DNA from: Cyanobacteriota bacterium
GTDB lineage: Bacteria; Cyanobacteriota; Cyanobacteriia; PCC-6307; Cyanobiaceae
Direction of reading: 5' to 3'
DNA: 64,000 bases
Assembly (NCBI GenBank): GCA_046052125.1
Contig: JBJOMY010000002.1
Coordinates: forward strand, 96,001-160,000
Made by a program: the position numbers and the translations under genes. Shown here piece after piece: positions 31,890 through 42,337 of this stretch. Position 1 is the stretch's first letter. Each line of letters opens with the position of its first letter. The notes beneath the pieces were generated by a model. It had not been told where the DNA came from. It did not search any database and worked only from the letters and a program-made list of their open reading frames with translations.

Positions 31890-34667
31890 TCAGCCCAGAT
31901 CCGCCAAACGCCTGCGGGCCAACTCAGCCTGAGCCTCGGCTTCGGCCAGGTTGGCCTTGCATTCGGCCACCACCTCCGGCGGTGCTTTGTCCGCGAAGTT
32001 GGGATTGGCGAGGCGGCCAGCGAGGCCTTTGATCTCTTTGTCGGCCTTGGCGATGTCTTTCTCAAGGCGGCCGCGCAGGGCCTCGAGATCCACCAGTCCT
32101 TCGATTGGCAGCAACACCTGCAGCTCACCGCTCACGCCGGCGAGGGCCTTGGTGGCTGGCTGGGCCTCGGCGGCGGCGGGATCGAGCACCTCAACGGTTT
32201 CAGCGCGGGTGAGGGCAGTGATATCCGCCGTGGCGGCTGAGAGCACCGCAGCGAGGGCGCCGCGGCCAGTCACGAACCGCACCGGCACGCTCTGGCTTGG
32301 CTTGAGGCCCGCCACGGCACGGAGGTTGCGCACCACCCGAATCGCTTCGATCAGATCACTGAACGACGCCTCCAGCTCGTCATCCAGCGAAGCAACGTCG
32401 ACCACCGGCCAGGGCTGCAGCGCCAGGAACGTCTCTTCAGAAGAGCCGGTGAGGCCATGCCAGAGCTCTTCGCTCAGGTGGGGCATCAGCGGATGGAGCA
32501 TCACGAACAGCTCGTTCAGCACCTTGGCGAGCACCTGCCGGGCGGTGCGCTGATCGGCCAGGGCGGCTGCGCTGGGGGACTCGCCGGGATTGAGGCGGCG
32601 CTTGATCAGCTCCACATACCAATCGCACACCTCGTTCCAGGCGAACTCATACAGACCCTTGGACGCTTCACCGAGGCCGTAGCTGCCGTAGCGCTCAGCG
32701 GTTTCACGATTCACCCGCGCCAGGCGCGAGAGGATCCAGCGATCCGCCAGCTGCAGCGCGGCCGGATCGGGTTCACCCAGGGAGGCGGGGGTTTCGCCAC
32801 CCAGGTTCATCAGCGCGAAACGGGTGACGTTCCAGAGCTTGTTGGCGAAGTTGCGCGAGGCCTCCACCGTGGCGGAGGTGTCGGATTTGCGGTCGTAGTC
32901 GAGGCGGATGTCCTGGCCGGCACCAGCCACCTCACGCACCAGGGCGAAGCGCAGCGCATCGGCGCCGTAGCGATCGATCAGCAGCAGCGGGTCGATGCCA
33001 TTGCCCGCCGATTTGCTCATCTTGCGGTTGTTCTCATCCCGCACCAGGCCGTGGATGTAGACGTCCTGGAAGGGCATCCGGCCGGTGAAGGCGCCGGCCA
33101 TCATCGTCATCCGGGCCACCCAGAAAAAGATGATGTCGAAGCCCGTCACCAGCACGCTGGTGGGATACCAACGGGCCAGATCGGCAGCACCCGCATCGGG
33201 CCAGCCGAGGGTGGAGAAGGGCCAGAGGCCGCTGGAGAACCAGGTGTCGAGGGCGTCAGGGTCCTGTTCGAGCACCAGCGGGTGGGCATGGGTGCCGCCG
33301 CTGAACTGGGCTTCGGCCTTAGCGCGGGCTTCCGCTTCATCGCGGGCCACCACATAAGGAGTGGTGTCGGTGATCACGCCACCGGTTTCGCTCACCACAA
33401 ACCAGGCGGGGATGCGATGGCCCCACCAGAGCTGGCGGGAGATGCACCAGTCGCGGATGTCGGTGAGCCAGTCGCGGTAGACCTTGCTCCAGCGCTCTGG
33501 CACGAAGCGGGGATCGGCTTGCTCGAGGGCCTCGCGGCAACGGGCGGCGAGGGGCTCTGTTTTCACGAACCACTGGGTGGAGAGCAACGGCTCCACCGGC
33601 ACCTTGCCGCGATCGGAGAAGGGCACGCTGTGGCGGTAGTCCTCCACCTTCACTAGGAAACCTTCGGCCTCCATCGCTGCCACCACGGCCTTGCGGGCCT
33701 CGAAGCGATCGAGACCCCGGAAGCGACCGGCGGCCTCGTTCATCGAGCCGTCCTTGGCCATCACCGTGATCAGCGGCAGGTTGTGGCGCTGGCCGATCGC
33801 GAAGTCGTTGGGGTCGTGGGCGGGGGTCACCTTCACGCAGCCGGTGCCGAACTCCGCATCCACGTGGTCGTCAGCCACGATCGGGATCTCGCGGCCCACC
33901 AGCGGCAGGGTGAGGGTCTGCCCCACCAGATCGGCATAACGCGGATCCTTGGGGTTCACGGCCACGGCCGTATCGCCGAGAAGCGTTTCGGGGCGGGTGG
34001 TGGCCACCTCCAAGTGGGTGCGGCCATCGGCGGCGGCACCGGCTGTGAGCGGGTAGCGGAAGTGCCAGAGGTGGCCATCCACCTCCTTCATCTCCACCTC
34101 CAGATCACTCACCGCCGAACCGGAGGCAGGGCACCAATTCACCAGGTATTCACCCCGGTAGATCAGTCCCTGCTCATGCAGGCGGTTGAACGCTTCGATC
34201 ACTGCCGCGCTGCAGCCGGCATCGAGCGTGAAGCGCTCGCGCCGCCAGTCCACCGAATAACCGAGCCGGCGCAGCTGGCCCACGATCGTACCGCCGCTCT
34301 GGGCCTTCCACTCCCAGGCCTTCTCCAGAAAGGCCTCACGGCCGAGATCCTCCTTGCGCTTGCCCTCAGCCTTGAGCTGCTTCTCGAGGATCGTCTGCAC
34401 GGCGATCGAAGCGTGATCGGTGCCGGGGAGGCAGAGCACGTTTTTGCCCTGCAGGCGCTGGAAGCGCACGATCGTGTCGATCAGGGCCGTGTTGAAGGCA
34501 TGGCCCATGTGCAGGCTGCCGGTCACATTCGGCGGCGGGATCACCACCGAGAACGGCTCACCGGGAGCACTGGGATCGGGGTGGAAGGCGCCGCTGGTTT
34601 CCCAGGCCTGCTGCCAGCGCGCTTCGGTGCCCACCGGGTCGTAGGTCTTGGGCAGGGCGTCGGTCAC
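31890..34667 (-). CDS. valS: valine--tRNA ligase
   Basis: [33 protein letters not shown] start at [11 protein letters not shown]. Confidence 0.98.
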
Positions 34668-34743
34668 AGGCAGCAGTGAGGCAATCGGGCCATGCTCGCA
34701 AAACGGCACCAGAGCCGGGATGATGTGCCCGCTTGCCGCGGCC

Positions 34744-36006
34744 ATGGCCCTGTTTCCTGCACCCCGATTGAGGCCATGGCGGCGCCGCGGCCTGCTGCTG
34801 GCACTCCTTGGCAGCCTCAGCCTCACCGGCTGCAAGGGCGGGCTCGAGCTTCCGAATGTGCTCTACCTGGCGATGAGCACAAACAGCGATCAAGCGATCG
34901 ATGCCGACCTTCTGGAAGAAACGCAGGCGCGCCTGAGCGTGCTGGAACGGGGCTACCGCCAGCTGCACCCCGCGAGCCGGTTTCAGTTCGCGCTCTACTC
35001 AGACAACACGATCAGCAAGGCCCTGATCCGGCGCAACAGAGCCGGACTGGGACCGGATGTGATCTTCGTGAACGGCGAAACGGCTTTACGGATGCTGGCG
35101 GACGGGGTGGTCTCCCCCTACCCCGCAGCCCCCGAGCAGTTGAAGCTGTTCGACCCGGACGATCTCGATCAACTCCGCAACAGCCGCGGCGAGTTGGCGG
35201 GCATCCCGGTGGTGATCCAGACCCAGCTGGCTTGCTTCAACCGCAAGCGCCTACCTGAGCCGCCTGCCACGGTGACGGACTTGCTCGCTGCCAGTGCTGC
35301 GGGGAACACTGTGGGGCTCACCGTGGACCCCTACTACTTGTATTGGAGCACCGGCAGCCTGGGGGCGCTGAAAGGCATCAATCGAGCCATCGCCGGACAA
35401 CAACCATCGCCAGCCGAGGTGAGGCAGATCGAGCAATGGCTGGCTTGGCTCCAGAACGCCAACAGTCAGCAGCGGGTGACCTTCTACAGCGACCAGAAGT
35501 CCGTGATCGCAGAGTTCCTGGCTGGGCGCATTGATTGGATGCCCTGCAACAGCATCACGCTCCCAAAACTGCGCAAACAGCTCGGCTCCAGCCTCGGCGT
35601 GAGCGCCCTACCCAACGGCCCCGATGGCAGTCCGCCAAGCCCCATGAAGCGGCTGCGTGTGTTTGCTCTGGGCAGCAGCTCCAGCGCCGCCGGGCGAGCT
35701 CGTGCCATTGCGTTCATTCGATTCTCAGCTAACCCGCTGATGCAGCGCATGCTCACCGTGGGATCTCAAACCCTTCTGCCGGCGAATCGCTTCGTGAAGG
35801 TGCCCGTGCAGAGCTCACAGGTGCTGGCGGCGATGGAGCTGTCCAACCGCCAGAGCGACCAGTTCAGCCAGATCGTGAAGCTCATGCATGACGACGATCC
35901 GCGTGTTCCCAAGGTGCAAGCGCTCATCACGGAGCTCGTGTTTGGCGAGGAGAGCGCCCGATCCAGCACCGAAACCCTGATCCAGATCCTGAGGGGCAAG
36001 GCATGA
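34744..36006 (+). CDS. extracellular solute-binding lipoprotein (sugar/MalE-like family)
   Basis: RRRGLL...LSLTGC lipobox; [40 protein letters not shown]. Confidence 0.8.
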
Positions 36007-37247
36007 GAACCCTGCTGCTCGAGGTGTTCGGCTGGCTGGGCTACCTGGAGCGCCCAGGCGTGGTGCTCCAGCTCCTGCTGATGGCGGGGCTCGTGCTCGG
36101 AACGCGCCTGGTGCGCCGCCGCCGCTTAGTGCCCCAGCTCCCGCGCCAGGCCCTCACGCCCATCGCCCTGGGGCTGGTGGTGATCTGCGTGCTGATCCTG
36201 GCTGCGGTGGGACTTCCCTACGCCCTCATGGCGCTGTTGGGGGTGATCTGGCTGGGCTGGTATGGGCTGAACAGACTCCACAGCCTGCTGTTGCGCTGGC
36301 TGCCGGGGTCACGGGTGCACCAGCTGGAGAGCCGCCTGCTGCGGCCGGCTTATCTCGTTCTGGTTGCGCTGGTGCTGATCAGCGAGGTGGACAGCCTGCA
36401 GGATCTTGCGGTGGCTCCCCTAGGGAAGCTGTTCGGGGTGGCGATCAGCTTCGGCAAGCTGTTTCAAGCCCTGGTGGTGATCTATCTGGTGCTGGTGGGC
36501 TGCGGCCCGCCGGCGGCGGGGCTGGCCTGGCTGGTGCAGCGGGCCGTGGGGATGAGCGAGGGCAGCCGCAAGGCGATGGAGCTGATGCTCCGTTACGCCG
36601 TGGTGGGCGTGGGATTGGTGGCCGTAGCCGTGCAGCTCGGGCTGAACACCACCGCCCTGATCGCGGTGGCCGGTGGCCTGTCGGTGGGCCTGGGCTTCGG
36701 CATCAAGGAGGTGTTTTCCAACTTCGTGAGCGGCCTGTGGCTGCTGTTTGAGGGCTCGGTGCGGCCTGGGGAGGTGCTGATGCTCGATGGCGACCCCTGC
36801 GAGGTGAGGAAGCTGGGGCTACGGGCCACCCTGCTCTGGCGCGACCGCGACAACGCCGAACTGCTGATCCCCAATCAGACCTTCTTCACCGAGGCGGCCA
36901 CCACCTACACCGCCAGCGACCGGATGCGCCGCAGCCAGGTGAGCGTGGGTGCGGCCTATCACCACGACCCGGCCGAAGTGATTGCCCTGCTGGAGGCCAC
37001 AGCCTTTGAGGTGCCCCGGGTGCTGCACGAGCCGGCGCCGAAGGCTCTGCTCCTGAGCTACGGCGATTCAGCAATCAACTACGCCCTGCGCTTCTGGATC
37101 GCCAATCCCATGGACAACGTGGGCATCTGCAGCGAGGTGAACCAGGCCATCTGGCATGCCTTCAAGCGCCACAACATCGAAATCCCCTTCCCGCAGCAAG
37201 TGCAATACGAGCTGCCCTGGCCCTCATCAGAGCGGGCGGAGGCTTAA
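36003..37247 (+). CDS. small-conductance mechanosensitive channel family protein
   Basis: GGLSVGLGFGIKEVFSNFVSG, VRPGE, LGLRAT, IPN, VGAAY, IEIPFPQ; ATGA overlap with upstream gene. Confidence 0.92.
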   Translation: MRTLLLEVFGWLGYLERPGVVLQLLLMAGLVLGTRLVRRRRLVPQLPRQALTPIALGLVVICVLILAAVGLPYALMALLGVIWLGWYGLNRLHSLLLRWLPGSRVHQLESRLLRPAYLVLVALVLISEVDSLQDLAVAPLGKLFGVAISFGKLFQALVVIYLVLVGCGPPAAGLAWLVQRAVGMSEGSRKAMELMLRYAVVGVGLVAVAVQLGLNTTALIAVAGGLSVGLGFGIKEVFSNFVSGLWLLFEGSVRPGEVLMLDGDPCEVRKLGLRATLLWRDRDNAELLIPNQTFFTEAATTYTASDRMRRSQVSVGAAYHHDPAEVIALLEATAFEVPRVLHEPAPKALLLSYGDSAINYALRFWIANPMDNVGICSEVNQAIWHAFKRHNIEIPFPQQVQYELPWPSSERAEA

Positions 37248-37867
37248 CCAGCCGCCAAACGGCTCAGATAACCCTCGCGGCTGCCGGCATTGATCCAGCC
37301 GGTGGCGATGGTTTTGGTGTCGGTGTGGTTCACCCGCCCGCGGTGAATGTGCGAGGGCCCAGCGGGAAAGATCACGAGCTTTCCGCGCTCCGCGTCCTCG
37401 TGGTGGGCCTGCCAGTGAAACTCCGTGCCGGCCTCCTCCACGCTGTTGCAGTAGAGGATCCAGGCCAGCACCCGGTGCACGGGCTCCGTGGCTTCATCGC
37501 TGATGGTCCAGTCACAGTGCCAGCGCTTGAAACCCTCCCCCGGCGCATAGCGCTGCAGGTTGAAGATCGGATTCACAAACAGCTGCTGCTCGGGGCAGCA
37601 GTCGCGGAACAGGGGCCGCTCCTGCAGGTAGCGCTCCAGGCCGGCGCTCACGCCGCGCAGGATCACCTCCGCCAGGGCAAAGGCTTCCGGATCGGAGCGA
37701 TCGATCGCCACCAGGCTGATGTCGGTGGACACCTTGGCGGGCTCGCCGCCACCGGGACCGAAGGCCACACCAGGGCGCCGCAGATCACTGCGGCGATCGA
37801 AGAAGGCGATCACGCCATCGGCCAGGGCCTCATAGCCGGCGTTGCGGTAGCGGGCGATCAGCTCCAT
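37244..37867 (-). CDS. 2OG-Fe(II) oxygenase
   Basis: LQRYAPGEGFKRWHCD (HxD), WILYCN, GTEF, IFPAG..HIHRG, KTIATGW. Confidence 0.88.
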   Translation of the reverse strand: MELIARYRNAGYEALADGVIAFFDRRSDLRRPGVAFGPGGGEPAKVSTDISLVAIDRSDPEAFALAEVILRGVSAGLERYLQERPLFRDCCPEQQLFVNPIFNLQRYAPGEGFKRWHCDWTISDEATEPVHRVLAWILYCNSVEEAGTEFHWQAHHEDAERGKLVIFPAGPSHIHRGRVNHTDTKTIATGWINAGSREGYLSRLAAG

Positions 37868-39500: not shown

Positions 39501-40187
39501 TCAGGCCAGAGCGCCACCCTCGAGGTGCACAATCCGATCGGCGATATCCAGCACTTTGTTGTCGTGGGTCACCATCACAATCGCCGCGCCACGGGTGTCG
39601 GCCAGCTCCCGAAACAGGGCCACCACATCGCGGCCTGATTCTTTATCCAGCGCGGCGGTGGGCTCGTCGGCGAGCAGCAGCTGGGGGTTGGAGGCCAGGG
39701 CGCGGGCAATAGCCACCCGCTGTTTTTGGCCGCCGGAGAGTTTGGCGGGCATGAAATCCACGCGATGGCCCAGGCCCACTTGGGTGAGGCGCTCGCGGCA
39801 GCGTGCATCCATGGCGCGCCGCCCCTGCTGCAGCCAGCTTGGGGCCACCTCCAGCCCCAGGCGCACGTTCTGCAGGGCACTCAGGTAGGGCATCAGATTG
39901 TGGGCCTGGAAGATGAAGCCCACCTGCCGGCGCAGCTGCGTGAGCTGCTGCTTCGAGGCGCCGCGCAGCTCTTCGCCGAAAAGCCGCAGGCTGCCGTCCT
40001 GGGCGGCGCGCAGGCCTCCCACCATGGTGAGCAGCGTTGTTTTGCCCGATCCAGAGGGGCCGGTGAGGATCACAATCTCGCCTGCGTTCACGGTGAGGTG
40101 GATGTCGCTCAACACCTGTTTGCTGCTGCCGGCCTCCTCAAACCAATGGTTGAGGCCCTTGATCTCCACAGGGGCTGCCGCGGCCAT
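39501..40187 (-). CDS. devA: DevA-family ABC transporter ATP-binding protein
   Basis: GPSGSGKT, IFQAHNL, LSGGQKQRVAIARAL, ADEPTAALD. Confidence 0.9.
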   Translation of the reverse strand: MAAAAPVEIKGLNHWFEEAGSSKQVLSDIHLTVNAGEIVILTGPSGSGKTTLLTMVGGLRAAQDGSLRLFGEELRGASKQQLTQLRRQVGFIFQAHNLMPYLSALQNVRLGLEVAPSWLQQGRRAMDARCRERLTQVGLGHRVDFMPAKLSGGQKQRVAIARALASNPQLLLADEPTAALDKESGRDVVALFRELADTRGAAIVMVTHDNKVLDIADRIVHLEGGALA

Positions 40188-41348
40188 TCAGAACACCTCG
40201 GCCGGATCGAGGCGGCGCAGCTTGCCGGTGGCCAGCCATCCCGATGCGCCGCAGATCACCAGGGTGAGCGCAAACACCAGGCCAGCGCGACTGAGGGTCA
40301 TCGTGAGCAGCAGCCCTGTGGAACGCACCAGGATCTGATAGAGCCCTATCGACACCACAACGCTGGGGAGAAACGCCACCGAAGCCAGGATCAACGACTC
40401 CTGCAGGATGATCCCCACTACGAAGACATCGCCGTAGCCCATGGCCTTCATCGTGGCGTATTCGCCGAGGTGATCCCCCACGTCGGAGTAGAGGATCTGG
40501 TAGACGATGATCGCCCCGACGGCGAGCCCCACCAGCACGCCGAGGTTGAAAATCAGGCCAAAGGAGCTGTTCTTTCGCCAGTGCTCCATTTCACGATCCA
40601 TCAGCTGCGGGATCGTGAGCACCTGCACCGAAGGCTCGAGGAAGCTCCGCAGTGTGGCTTGCACCCGGGTGGCACTAACGCCCGGGTGCAGCTGGATCAC
40701 GCCGATCTGGATGTCGTCGTTATTGGTTTCTGGGAGGTAAGTCTGGAAGTTGGAGCTAGAGCTGATCAGGTTGATGTCGGCTGCAAAGGTGAGCCCGAGC
40801 TGGAACAAACCCACCACCTGGGCCCGCTGGCCGCGCAGCTCTGTGTCGTAGGGGTGCCCTGACGCCAGGGTTTGGGCGACGGGCCCGGCACTCTTTTTGG
40901 AGCCGCGATCAAAAAAGATGCTGTTGGGCCGCTCCAGCAGGCTGCGCTGTTGCTGAAGCTCCGACAGCTTCAGGGCGGGGTTGTCTGGGCTAACGCCAAA
41001 CAACAGGGCCTGTTTTTTCTGGCGGGTGTCCTGGTTGATCCAATCGATCTTGCCGATGTAGAGCGGCGTAACCGCCTTCACCCCTTCCACACCGAGGGCC
41101 CGCGCCAGCTGGGCCCGGGGCATGGTGAGGGGTTCCCCCAGGTTGCTGTAGCGGCGTGGCACCAGCACCAGTTGGCCATTGATCTGCTGGATCGGCCGTT
41201 TCTGACTGTCGTAGAGGGCTCCCGAGAGGCCCATCTGAAAGAACACCAGCACGTTGGCGAAGCCCACGCCGGCGATGGCGGCCAACAGGCGCATCGGTTT
41301 GTGGCTGAGCTGCAGCCAGGCCACCGGCGTGCGGGGCTTTGGCCTCAT
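40188..41348 (-). CDS. devC: DevC-family ABC transporter permease
   Basis: PVAWLQL...LLAAIAGVGFA, IVYQILYSDV.DHL.EYATMKAMGY, LRRLDPAEVF. Confidence 0.9.
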   Translation of the reverse strand: MRPKPRTPVAWLQLSHKPMRLLAAIAGVGFANVLVFFQMGLSGALYDSQKRPIQQINGQLVLVPRRYSNLGEPLTMPRAQLARALGVEGVKAVTPLYIGKIDWINQDTRQKKQALLFGVSPDNPALKLSELQQQRSLLERPNSIFFDRGSKKSAGPVAQTLASGHPYDTELRGQRAQVVGLFQLGLTFAADINLISSSSNFQTYLPETNNDDIQIGVIQLHPGVSATRVQATLRSFLEPSVQVLTIPQLMDREMEHWRKNSSFGLIFNLGVLVGLAVGAIIVYQILYSDVGDHLGEYATMKAMGYGDVFVVGIILQESLILASVAFLPSVVVSIGLYQILVRSTGLLLTMTLSRAGLVFALTLVICGASGWLATGKLRRLDPAEVF

Positions 41349-42337
41349 GGCTGGCTCGGCCGCTGCTGGCGTTGCTCCGGCGTGAGCGGGTCAAACACCA
41401 CGTTCACCTGCAGGTAGTTGACCCGGCTGGCCTTGGCGATCGCCTCGGCCGGTAAGGCGATCTTCACCTCCACCACCCTCCGGTCGACGTTGTCCCCCGA
41501 CTCCCCCGTGGTGACGCTCTGACGGCTCACCTGGCGGGAGATCGCACTGACGTTGCCGCGAACGCTGTGGCCAGGGAATCCATCGGCACTGATCGTGACC
41601 GCCTGGTTGGGCCTGATTTCGGGGAGATCGGATTGGTACACCTCGGCGATCACCCCCATGCGGCTGCTGTCCCCCATCTCCAACAGCCCGCCTTCGCCGA
41701 TCTTGTCGCCGGCATGGGCAATGAGTTTGAAGATGGTGCCGCCATAGGGCGCCCGAATGGTGGTTTTGGCCAACTCGGCTTGATCTTTGACCAGGGATCC
41801 ACGGCTTTCGATCAGCTCCGCCTGCAGGGTCTCGCGATCCGCAAGTGCCTCCTGCAACTGGGCCTCACTACTCTCGGCTTCGGCCTGCTTGGCCTCGTAG
41901 CGATTGGCGGATGTGGCCCCTGCTGCAAACAGCTCTTTGGCGCGGCGAGCCTCGGCCTTGGCCTGATTGAGTTCTGCGCGGTAGCGACGGATCACTGCAT
42001 CCTGGGAGCGCAGCTTGCGCTCGGCCACCGCGATGCTCGCCTTGGATTTCTGAGCGGTGGCATTGAGGCTGTCGAAACTCTCCAGGATCGCCAGGGGTTG
42101 GCCCTGCTCCACCCGTTGGCCTTCGCTAACCAAAATCTCGCGCACCCGGTCATTGCTCAGGCTGCTGGGCACGGACACCTTGCTGATGCCACCGAGGGGT
42201 TCGATGCGCCCCAGGGCAGACACTCTGCGGGCTAGCGGTGCTTCAGCCTGCGGTGCATTGCTTGGGAGCAGCTGACAGCCTCCGCTCAAGCCCCCCACAA
42301 GCACAAGGAGCGCCGACAACGCAGCGCGGTTAGCCAT
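41345..42337 (-). CDS. devB: DevB-family membrane fusion protein (HlyD family)
   Basis: VSALGRIEP, IRAP..G, AEVYQSD, DRRVVEVKI. Confidence 0.88.
   Translation of the reverse strand: MANRAALSALLVLVGGLSGGCQLLPSNAPQAEAPLARRVSALGRIEPLGGISKVSVPSSLSNDRVREILVSEGQRVEQGQPLAILESFDSLNATAQKSKASIAVAERKLRSQDAVIRRYRAELNQAKAEARRAKELFAAGATSANRYEAKQAEAESSEAQLQEALADRETLQAELIESRGSLVKDQAELAKTTIRAPYGGTIFKLIAHAGDKIGEGGLLEMGDSSRMGVIAEVYQSDLPEIRPNQAVTISADGFPGHSVRGNVSAISRQVSRQSVTTGESGDNVDRRVVEVKIALPAEAIAKASRVNYLQVNVVFDPLTPEQRQQRPSQP

Follow-up and report, generated by a model that had tools for sequence, protein, structure and literature searches.

Bacterial MscS-like channels are described, in the available parts of PMC13591265, as self-sufficient proteins that open under tension without accessory proteins, with little known beyond E. 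coli, and these parts mention neither an accessory protein nor a binding-protein partner. According to the same parts, the periplasmic rings of MscK and MscM shape gating, removal of the MscM ring lessening gating hysteresis, and MscS-like proteins such as bCNG and MscCG have added regulation or a role other than in downshock. Periplasmic binding proteins, for their part, can have membrane partners other than transporters, including chemoreceptors, sensor kinases and cyclases (PMC8050422, available portion), all systems that need ligand binding; the search terms channel, mechanosens, MscS and accessory are all absent from that portion. Among studies closer to the present organisms, the available main text of PMC8786288 lists several clusters of picocyanobacterial binding proteins that lack an assigned function and makes no mention of MscS, that of PMC9361551 reports 24 MscS clusters with a habitat bias and notes no partner (supplements aside in both cases), and the available part of PMC12903740 does not mention the pair considered here.

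Full-text searches likewise returned no paper that describes this pair in its title or abstract, in a body of text in which subscription journals are mostly uncovered. A binding-protein fold does control an ion channel in GluR0 and the ionotropic glutamate receptors; there, unlike in our case, the domain is fused, belongs to another class of binding protein, keeps an intact ligand site and acts on a potassium-channel-type pore. Here we describe a MalE-fold lipoprotein (P0001) that is inherited together with an MscS-family channel (P0002), and conclude that this partnership is real, widespread and new.

Organization of the locus

The two genes lie in the window, the 64,000-nucleotide stretch of a Cyanobiaceae genome analysed here (Table 1); homologues that bear names suggest a picocyanobacterium of the Cyanobium type. 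As an earlier note on this DNA had proposed, two same-strand open reading frames overlapping by ATGA are found at these coordinates, and Pfam assignments agree with a divergent valS and a convergent oxygenase on either side of them. The absence of an ABC import permease nearby was also borne out, with none of the genome's 18 BPD_transp_1 matches on this contig. An ABC ATPase at 39501-40187 adjoins FtsX- and HlyD-family genes and is of exporter type (Pfam); this set of ATPase, FtsX-type permease and HlyD-type adaptor (39501-42337) is unrelated to the lipoprotein-channel pair and amounts to a DevBCA-like exporter. Elsewhere in the genome (G000), its only other MscS gene (L124:6615-7613) closes a sugar ABC operon with genes for a binding protein and MalF-, MalG- and MalK-like proteins, a second and looser link between sugar import and MscS.

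The flanking genes themselves were rejected as parts of the module, since, of 141 cyanobacterial loci, only 33 have valS next to the pair and 40 have the 2OG-Fe(II) oxygenase. Transcribed divergently, valS and the lipoprotein gene have starts just ~76 bases apart (34668-34743). No sigma-70 consensus was found in this interval, and a promoter and terminator scan of the locus gave nothing exceeding chance. River and freshwater RNA libraries contained contigs across both genes, two of them spanning the junction, although such contigs cannot prove transcription or a single message. An ESM Atlas look-up, the channel N-terminus aside, matched cyanobacterial clusters only, under generic names, and no relative was found in the viral contigs searched.

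Table 1. Features of the lipoprotein-channel locus and its neighbours, in window coordinates.
Feature	Position	Strand	Basis
valS, divergent neighbour, outside the module	31890..34667	-	Pfam
MalE-fold lipoprotein P0001, 420 aa	34744..36006	+	SBP_bac_8 match, model, MalE-type folds, pocket analysis
Signal peptide up to lipobox Cys30, predicted lipid anchor	34744..34833	+	Sequence; lipobox-like motif in homologues
G101-L102-G103-P104-D105 patch; with S314, N330 and G401, candidate docking surface	35044..35058	+	Inferred from conservation
Cys164 and Cys268, predicted disulfide	35233..35547	+	Co-presence, intra-protein coupling
R303 and R305, cleft floor	35650..35658	+	Conserved only in the picocyanobacterial family
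ATGA stop-start overlap	36003..36006	+	Sequence; kept in same-genus loci
MscK-like MscS-family channel P0002, 414 aa	36003..37247	+	Pfam, NCBIfam, model, best folds, hydropathy and charge pattern
R17-x2-V20-x2-Q23 motif, predicted periplasmic end of first membrane helix	36051..36071	+	Subfamily signature
Pore helix, residues 216-250, MscK-type, presumed gate V228/F232	36648..36752	+	Conservation; presumed MscS equivalence
2OG-Fe(II) oxygenase, convergent neighbour, outside the module	37244..37867	-	Pfam

A MalE-fold lipoprotein with an eroded sugar pocket

The MalE-like, sugar-binding-type identity proposed for the first gene product holds at the level of the fold. P0001 matches SBP_bac_8 at 57.6 bits (cut-off 27), and its model (pLDDT 93.8) aligns with MalE-type proteins at a TM-score of ~0.6-0.7 and 12-17% identity. 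It is not a TRAP or TTT binding protein, SBP_bac_8 being its sole Pfam match (no DctP or TctC) and its neighbours differing from DctQM and TctAB. The twin-arginine-like leader noted earlier is present in P0001, but Tat export is unsupported as a trait of the lipoprotein family, only 16 of 106 homologues having a Tat-like pattern; a lipobox-like motif occurs in 91 of 106.

We mapped twelve MalE sugar-contact positions onto the family by sequence alignment, the three C-terminal positions less surely than the others, using a contact list and E. coli MalE numbering that we take to include D65, E111, Y155, W230 and W340. Identity at these positions was below the average of the protein in each channel-linked lineage, at 0.16 vs. 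0.36 in 124 Cyanobiaceae, 0.25 vs. 0.40 in 19 other cyanobacteria and 0.23 vs. 0.41 in 87 Chloroflexota-type first domains, levels reached by no more than 2% of randomly drawn position sets; in 14 ABC-linked proteins it was 0.79 vs. 0.52. Tryptophan at the W230 or W340 position was found in 0/124 Cyanobiaceae and 0/19 other cyanobacteria, compared to 14/14 members of the ABC-linked clade. Since the pocket also varies among 32 valS-linked orthologues (0.24 vs. 0.45), relaxed selection is favoured over ligands that differ between paralogues. The compatible solutes suggested previously as ligands are thus unsupported: with the MalE contact positions lost, and more variable than average in all three lineages, it is unlikely that sucrose, trehalose or glucosylglycerol would be bound in the MalE manner.

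Conservation is instead found elsewhere in the protein. First domains of channel-linked proteins retain G101, L102, G187, S314, N330 and G401, most of which are missing from the later tandem domains and from ABC-linked proteins, with L102 present in 200 of 230 pairs; G101-L102 lie at the end of the N-lobe helix through which MalE touches its membrane partners. Cys164 and Cys268 are jointly present or jointly absent in 230/230 sequences and form the ninth-ranked intra-protein coupling. On the cleft floor, R303 and R305 are arginine in 86 and 92 of 124 Cyanobiaceae, respectively, and other cyanobacteria and Chloroflexota differ there; among the valS-linked orthologues, R303 is kept in 24/32, R305 in 28/32, S270 in 31/32 and Q161 in 32/32. 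The two arginines may be an anion site or structural fill, and the conservation of all four residues in Cyanobiaceae would fit a retained ligand site, although no cleft residue is common to all three channel-linked lineages.

P0001 therefore resembles CUT1 binding proteins of the MalE type (MalEFGK, GacH, UgpB) in its fold, its SBP_bac_8 match and its lipoprotein anchor, and the nearest sister clade of the family is a MalE-like protein with MalF/MalG-type neighbours. Unlike CUT1 proteins, channel-linked lipoproteins have lost the sugar contacts, have no recurrent permease or ATPase neighbours and are co-inherited with a channel, and they feature a putative disulfide (cyanobacteria) or two to four tandem domains (Chloroflexota).

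An MscK-like channel with a short periplasmic side

The second gene product was claimed to be an MscS-family protein with extra N-terminal helices, and both parts of this description were recovered: MS_channel_1st, 2nd and 3rd all score above their curated Pfam cut-offs, and the model (pLDDT 87.9) comprises an N-terminal helix, seven membrane-type helices and an MscS cage. The best NCBIfam match is PRK11281, the C-terminal part of MscK, over residues 147-398, at 174.8 bits against a cut-off of 991, and among known folds the E. coli MscK structures 7ux1 and 7uw5 match best (over 403-427 columns). No Pfam match to MscS_porin or MscS_TM was found in P0002.

MscK (KefA) and MscM of E. coli are hence the closest matches in sequence and fold, sharing the pore helix, the beta and alpha-beta cage and extra membrane helices. 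They differ in size, with ~1100 aa and eleven membrane helices compared to 414 aa and seven predicted helices, and P0002 lacks a large periplasmic domain of the helical-bundle type, carries a unique N-terminal motif and is strictly linked to a separate lipoprotein of unrelated fold. The channel falls outside MscK proper and the lipoprotein outside MalE-type importers, though both folds are known. bCNG and MscCG differ in another way: each has its additional domain fused to the channel, on the cytoplasmic side in bCNG, and a separate periplasmic partner is absent. P0002 also lacks the Pfam match that corresponds to bCNG and stops just past MS_channel_3rd.

Basic residues are concentrated in loops 36-47, 91-111 and 180-192, a pattern that by the positive-inside rule would make the N-terminus periplasmic, along with loops 70-73, 130-149 and 212-216. 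R17 and Q23 of the N-terminal motif occur in 228/230 partner channels. This count comes from aligning to a profile every pair that cleared the filters on score and length, unlike alignment A6, which had been trimmed with the motif as a guide. The pore helix is the most conserved region of the channel and, together with the cage, lies closest to MscK. V228 (215/230) and F232 (224/230) are taken to form a hydrophobic gate, through an assumed equivalence to MscS L105/L109. A few residues excepted, the periplasmic loops are not above the membrane helices in conservation.

Strict co-inheritance in cyanobacteria

The earlier note had staked its reading on the pairing being conserved across genomes, and a neighbourhood survey found the pair kept in different neighbourhoods, in both gene orders and in duplicate. 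Within the genus, the lipoprotein was found in 30 of 36 genomes, and in 30/30 loci the channel lies directly downstream with the identical ATGA overlap; such an overlap alone is common in the genome studied here (125 of 1341 same-strand neighbours, as called by a rough gene finder). Six genomes hold a second lipoprotein copy, each with a second channel adjoining, and, of the six lipoprotein-free genomes, five have no channel orthologue and the sixth has a channel fragment at a contig end. At least five distinct neighbourhoods contain the pair in this genus, and no import permease was seen among the open reading frames read there.

Across cyanobacteria, the two genes adjoined in 141/141 loci (genus 36/36, family 90/90, further cyanobacterial 15/15), the family loci coming from 90 of the 136 lipoprotein-positive genomes. 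These 136 were identified among 221 family genomes, 138 of which had a channel match; the two surplus matches (in G016 and G549) score under the subfamily tier, and per-genus tallies are otherwise equal. Up to three pairs occur per genome, genera with small genomes (~1.7-1.9 Mb) have neither gene, and most of the larger-genome picocyanobacteria that were sampled carry the pair. A draw of 251 genomes across the cyanobacterial phylum gave 18 lipoprotein genes in 16 genomes (at least 279 bits) and 18 full-length channel genes in the same 16 genomes (>400 bits), with a clear score gap beneath, and all 18 channels adjoin a lipoprotein, in either gene order. No recurrent permease and no recurrent signalling gene was found among the neighbours of homologues. 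Because the genomes are kin, the counts overstate independence; despite this kinship, the pattern of co-inheritance holds in three lineages.

Among all loci surveyed, L353 and L363 depart from the usual arrangement. At L353, no channel lies within 1140 bases downstream of the lipoprotein gene, and at L363:3-752 a single open reading frame starts as the N-terminal half of the lipoprotein and continues as the final domain of the channel, which looks like an internal deletion or an assembly fault.

The pair outside cyanobacteria

A profile search of 1.84 billion representatives returned 882 matches, including one cluster bearing the name Caldilinea and lipoproteins in which the domain is repeated in tandem two, three or four times; such arrays of two to four binding domains characterize the Chloroflexota lipoproteins. 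Using an alignment of ten tandem proteins as the query, a GTDB scan recovered 78 loci, mostly from Anaerolineae, with two from Ca. Moduliflexus and a few from cyanobacteria. The channel is adjacent in 70 of these (68 by rule plus L079 and L108), lying upstream in three, while 3 loci end at a contig edge and 5 have no channel. In two of the latter five, the genome carries a subfamily channel elsewhere (G063 and G064), and the other three proteins fall outside the channel-linked clade and retain the sugar pocket, including both pocket tryptophans. Among 53 metagenome loci, some of which duplicate GTDB records, 36 have the channel adjacent, 14 lie at a contig edge and 3 have none. The pairing thus holds in cyanobacteria and Chloroflexota as well as in two genomes of Ca. 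Moduliflexus, in agreement with the proposal of a dedicated two-gene module without an ABC permease. An even draw of 201 Chloroflexota genomes contained no subfamily channel, the best match (L206) having neither the motif nor a partner, and the pair is therefore patchy in this phylum.

Several of these loci show other arrangements. G063 (L111, L138) and G064 (L089, L140) each keep a lipoprotein and a subfamily channel at separate loci, and the two are adjacent in L155, a close relative of the G063 case. The Caldilineaceae proteins at L104, L109 and L112, with an intact MalE-type pocket, are encoded within a gene cluster for the biosynthesis of aromatic amino acids that has no channel and no evident permease, and branch between ABC-linked and channel-linked proteins. 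In a cyanobacterial metagenome-assembled genome, the partner channel (L108:8173-9996) lacks the N-terminal R-x2-V-x2-Q motif and carries an extra C-terminal globin-like domain, with a flavohemoprotein model match at 475-602.

Controls and phylogeny

At 38 control loci with other MscK-like channels, neither a family lipoprotein beside the channel nor the N-terminal motif in it was found (0/38). The binding proteins next in score, of which 14 from non-photosynthetic relatives were examined, align with MalE, keep the pocket and, among the matches listed, sit in MalF/MalG-type clusters, as read from open reading frames. Each partner forms its own clade: the channel-linked lipoproteins are split from ABC-linked and lone ones with a support of 0.993, in a tree that left out later tandem domains, and 110 subfamily channels are split from 50 others with a support of 0.969 (FastTree). 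All cyanobacterial lipoproteins group in a single clade (0.969) that lies within the Chloroflexota-type first domains, which may point to a transfer of the pair into cyanobacteria. The mirror-tree correlation between lipoprotein and channel is 0.78-0.87, which we do not count as evidence because linkage and kinship predict it.

A candidate periplasmic subunit and its alternatives

Two proteins of recognizable fold, each a clade of its own, are strictly co-inherited, the pocket of one is eroded, and both carry family-specific motifs. A dedicated periplasmic subunit fits best, because inheritance is one-to-one, the pocket is lost and the motifs on the periplasmic side match. We give an about even chance to the reading that the lipoprotein docks on the periplasmic face of the channel as a separate subunit and tunes its gating. 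The lipoprotein would once have been the MalE-type binding protein of an ABC importer for sugars and would later have switched partner, its G101-D105/S314/N330/G401 surface meeting the R17-V20-Q23 elbow and the short periplasmic loops of the channel. Up to seven lipid-anchored copies could then form a cap that would set threshold, kinetics or hysteresis during osmotic change, like the periplasmic rings of MscK and MscM. In Chloroflexota, docking would fall to the first of the two to four tandem domains; those behind it, which lack the patch, may reach outward as spacers or tethers.

Three computational tests addressed physical contact. Inter-protein covariation over 230 pairs, underpowered at an effective number of 148, gave nothing above three shuffles and no periplasmic enrichment. 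Complex prediction with alignments, for two copies of channel residues 1-302 and lipoprotein residues 35-420, reached a median of 0.31 vs. a mark of 0.32, which we count neither for nor against contact. No lipoprotein-channel fusion was found in 5 longer binding-protein matches, 150 representatives or the 120 longer channels listed (lengths of at least 861), all weak tests.

The same strict co-inheritance would also be expected if the lipoprotein bound a small molecule not of the maltose type and thereby opened or fed the channel; for picocyanobacteria this molecule might be an anion, bound through R303, R305 and S270. The two-lobed fold is intact, the clade-specific cleft residues R303, R305, S270 and Q161 persist in valS-linked orthologues, as many as three pairs occur in one genome, paralogous pairs and tandem domains would broaden the range of ligands, and MscS-like channels with roles beyond downshock are known (bCNG and MscCG; PMC13591265, available parts). 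However, the cleft residues are not common to the three lineages, the classical pocket varies even among orthologues and the pore helix is of a plain MscK type, so that we consider this reading unlikely. Its feeding variant faces a further obstacle in that a wide passive pore cannot give concentrative uptake. The general proposition of an MscS-family channel controlled in trans by a separate periplasmic protein of binding-protein fold, the cleft of each lineage reading a different small molecule, we regard as conceivable but somewhat doubtful.

We think it improbable that the MscS-fold protein is a scaffold or sensor rather than mainly a pore, with the lipoprotein as an envelope link or assembly chaperone. 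The MscS-like YbdG gives no current under tension (PMC13591265, available parts), the tandem domains of Chloroflexota could bridge the envelope, and one partner channel has a C-terminal globin-like domain, but conservation is highest in the pore helix and cage, which are also nearest to MscK, and the neighbours include no recurrent signalling gene. Lastly, service to a distant sugar-type ABC permease, for example recapturing solutes released by the channel, with the genes merely co-regulated, appears quite improbable: the genome does hold two MalF/MalG-type permease pairs, one of them scattered, as well as a sugar ABC operon whose last gene is the genome's other MscS gene, and split lipoprotein and channel loci occur, yet the reading is weakened because a canonical binding protein is available to each permease pair (L124:2679-3893 and L126:2605-3933), P0001 is absent from the genome's seven SBP_bac_1 matches, its sugar pocket is eroded, and gain, loss and duplication of the lipoprotein track the channel rather than a permease.

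Implications

A dedicated and separate periplasmic partner would represent both a new form of regulation for MscS-like channels and a new job for the binding-protein fold. Should control in trans prove true, the lipoprotein would belong to an undescribed class of binding-protein partners beside ABC, TRAP and TTT transporters and signalling receptors, and would give this channel family an accessory subunit, which its reviewed members do without in gating. The pair is testable now, since the cultured strains Synechocystis sp. PCC 7338 (QUS60648/QUS60649) and Rippkaea orientalis PCC 8801 (ACK66046/ACK66047) carry both the lipoprotein and the channel. Picocyanobacterial lipoproteins of this family are annotated as a sugar-importer subunit (source names), and if they have neither a sugar pocket nor a permease, such annotations would overstate sugar uptake by these abundant phototrophs.
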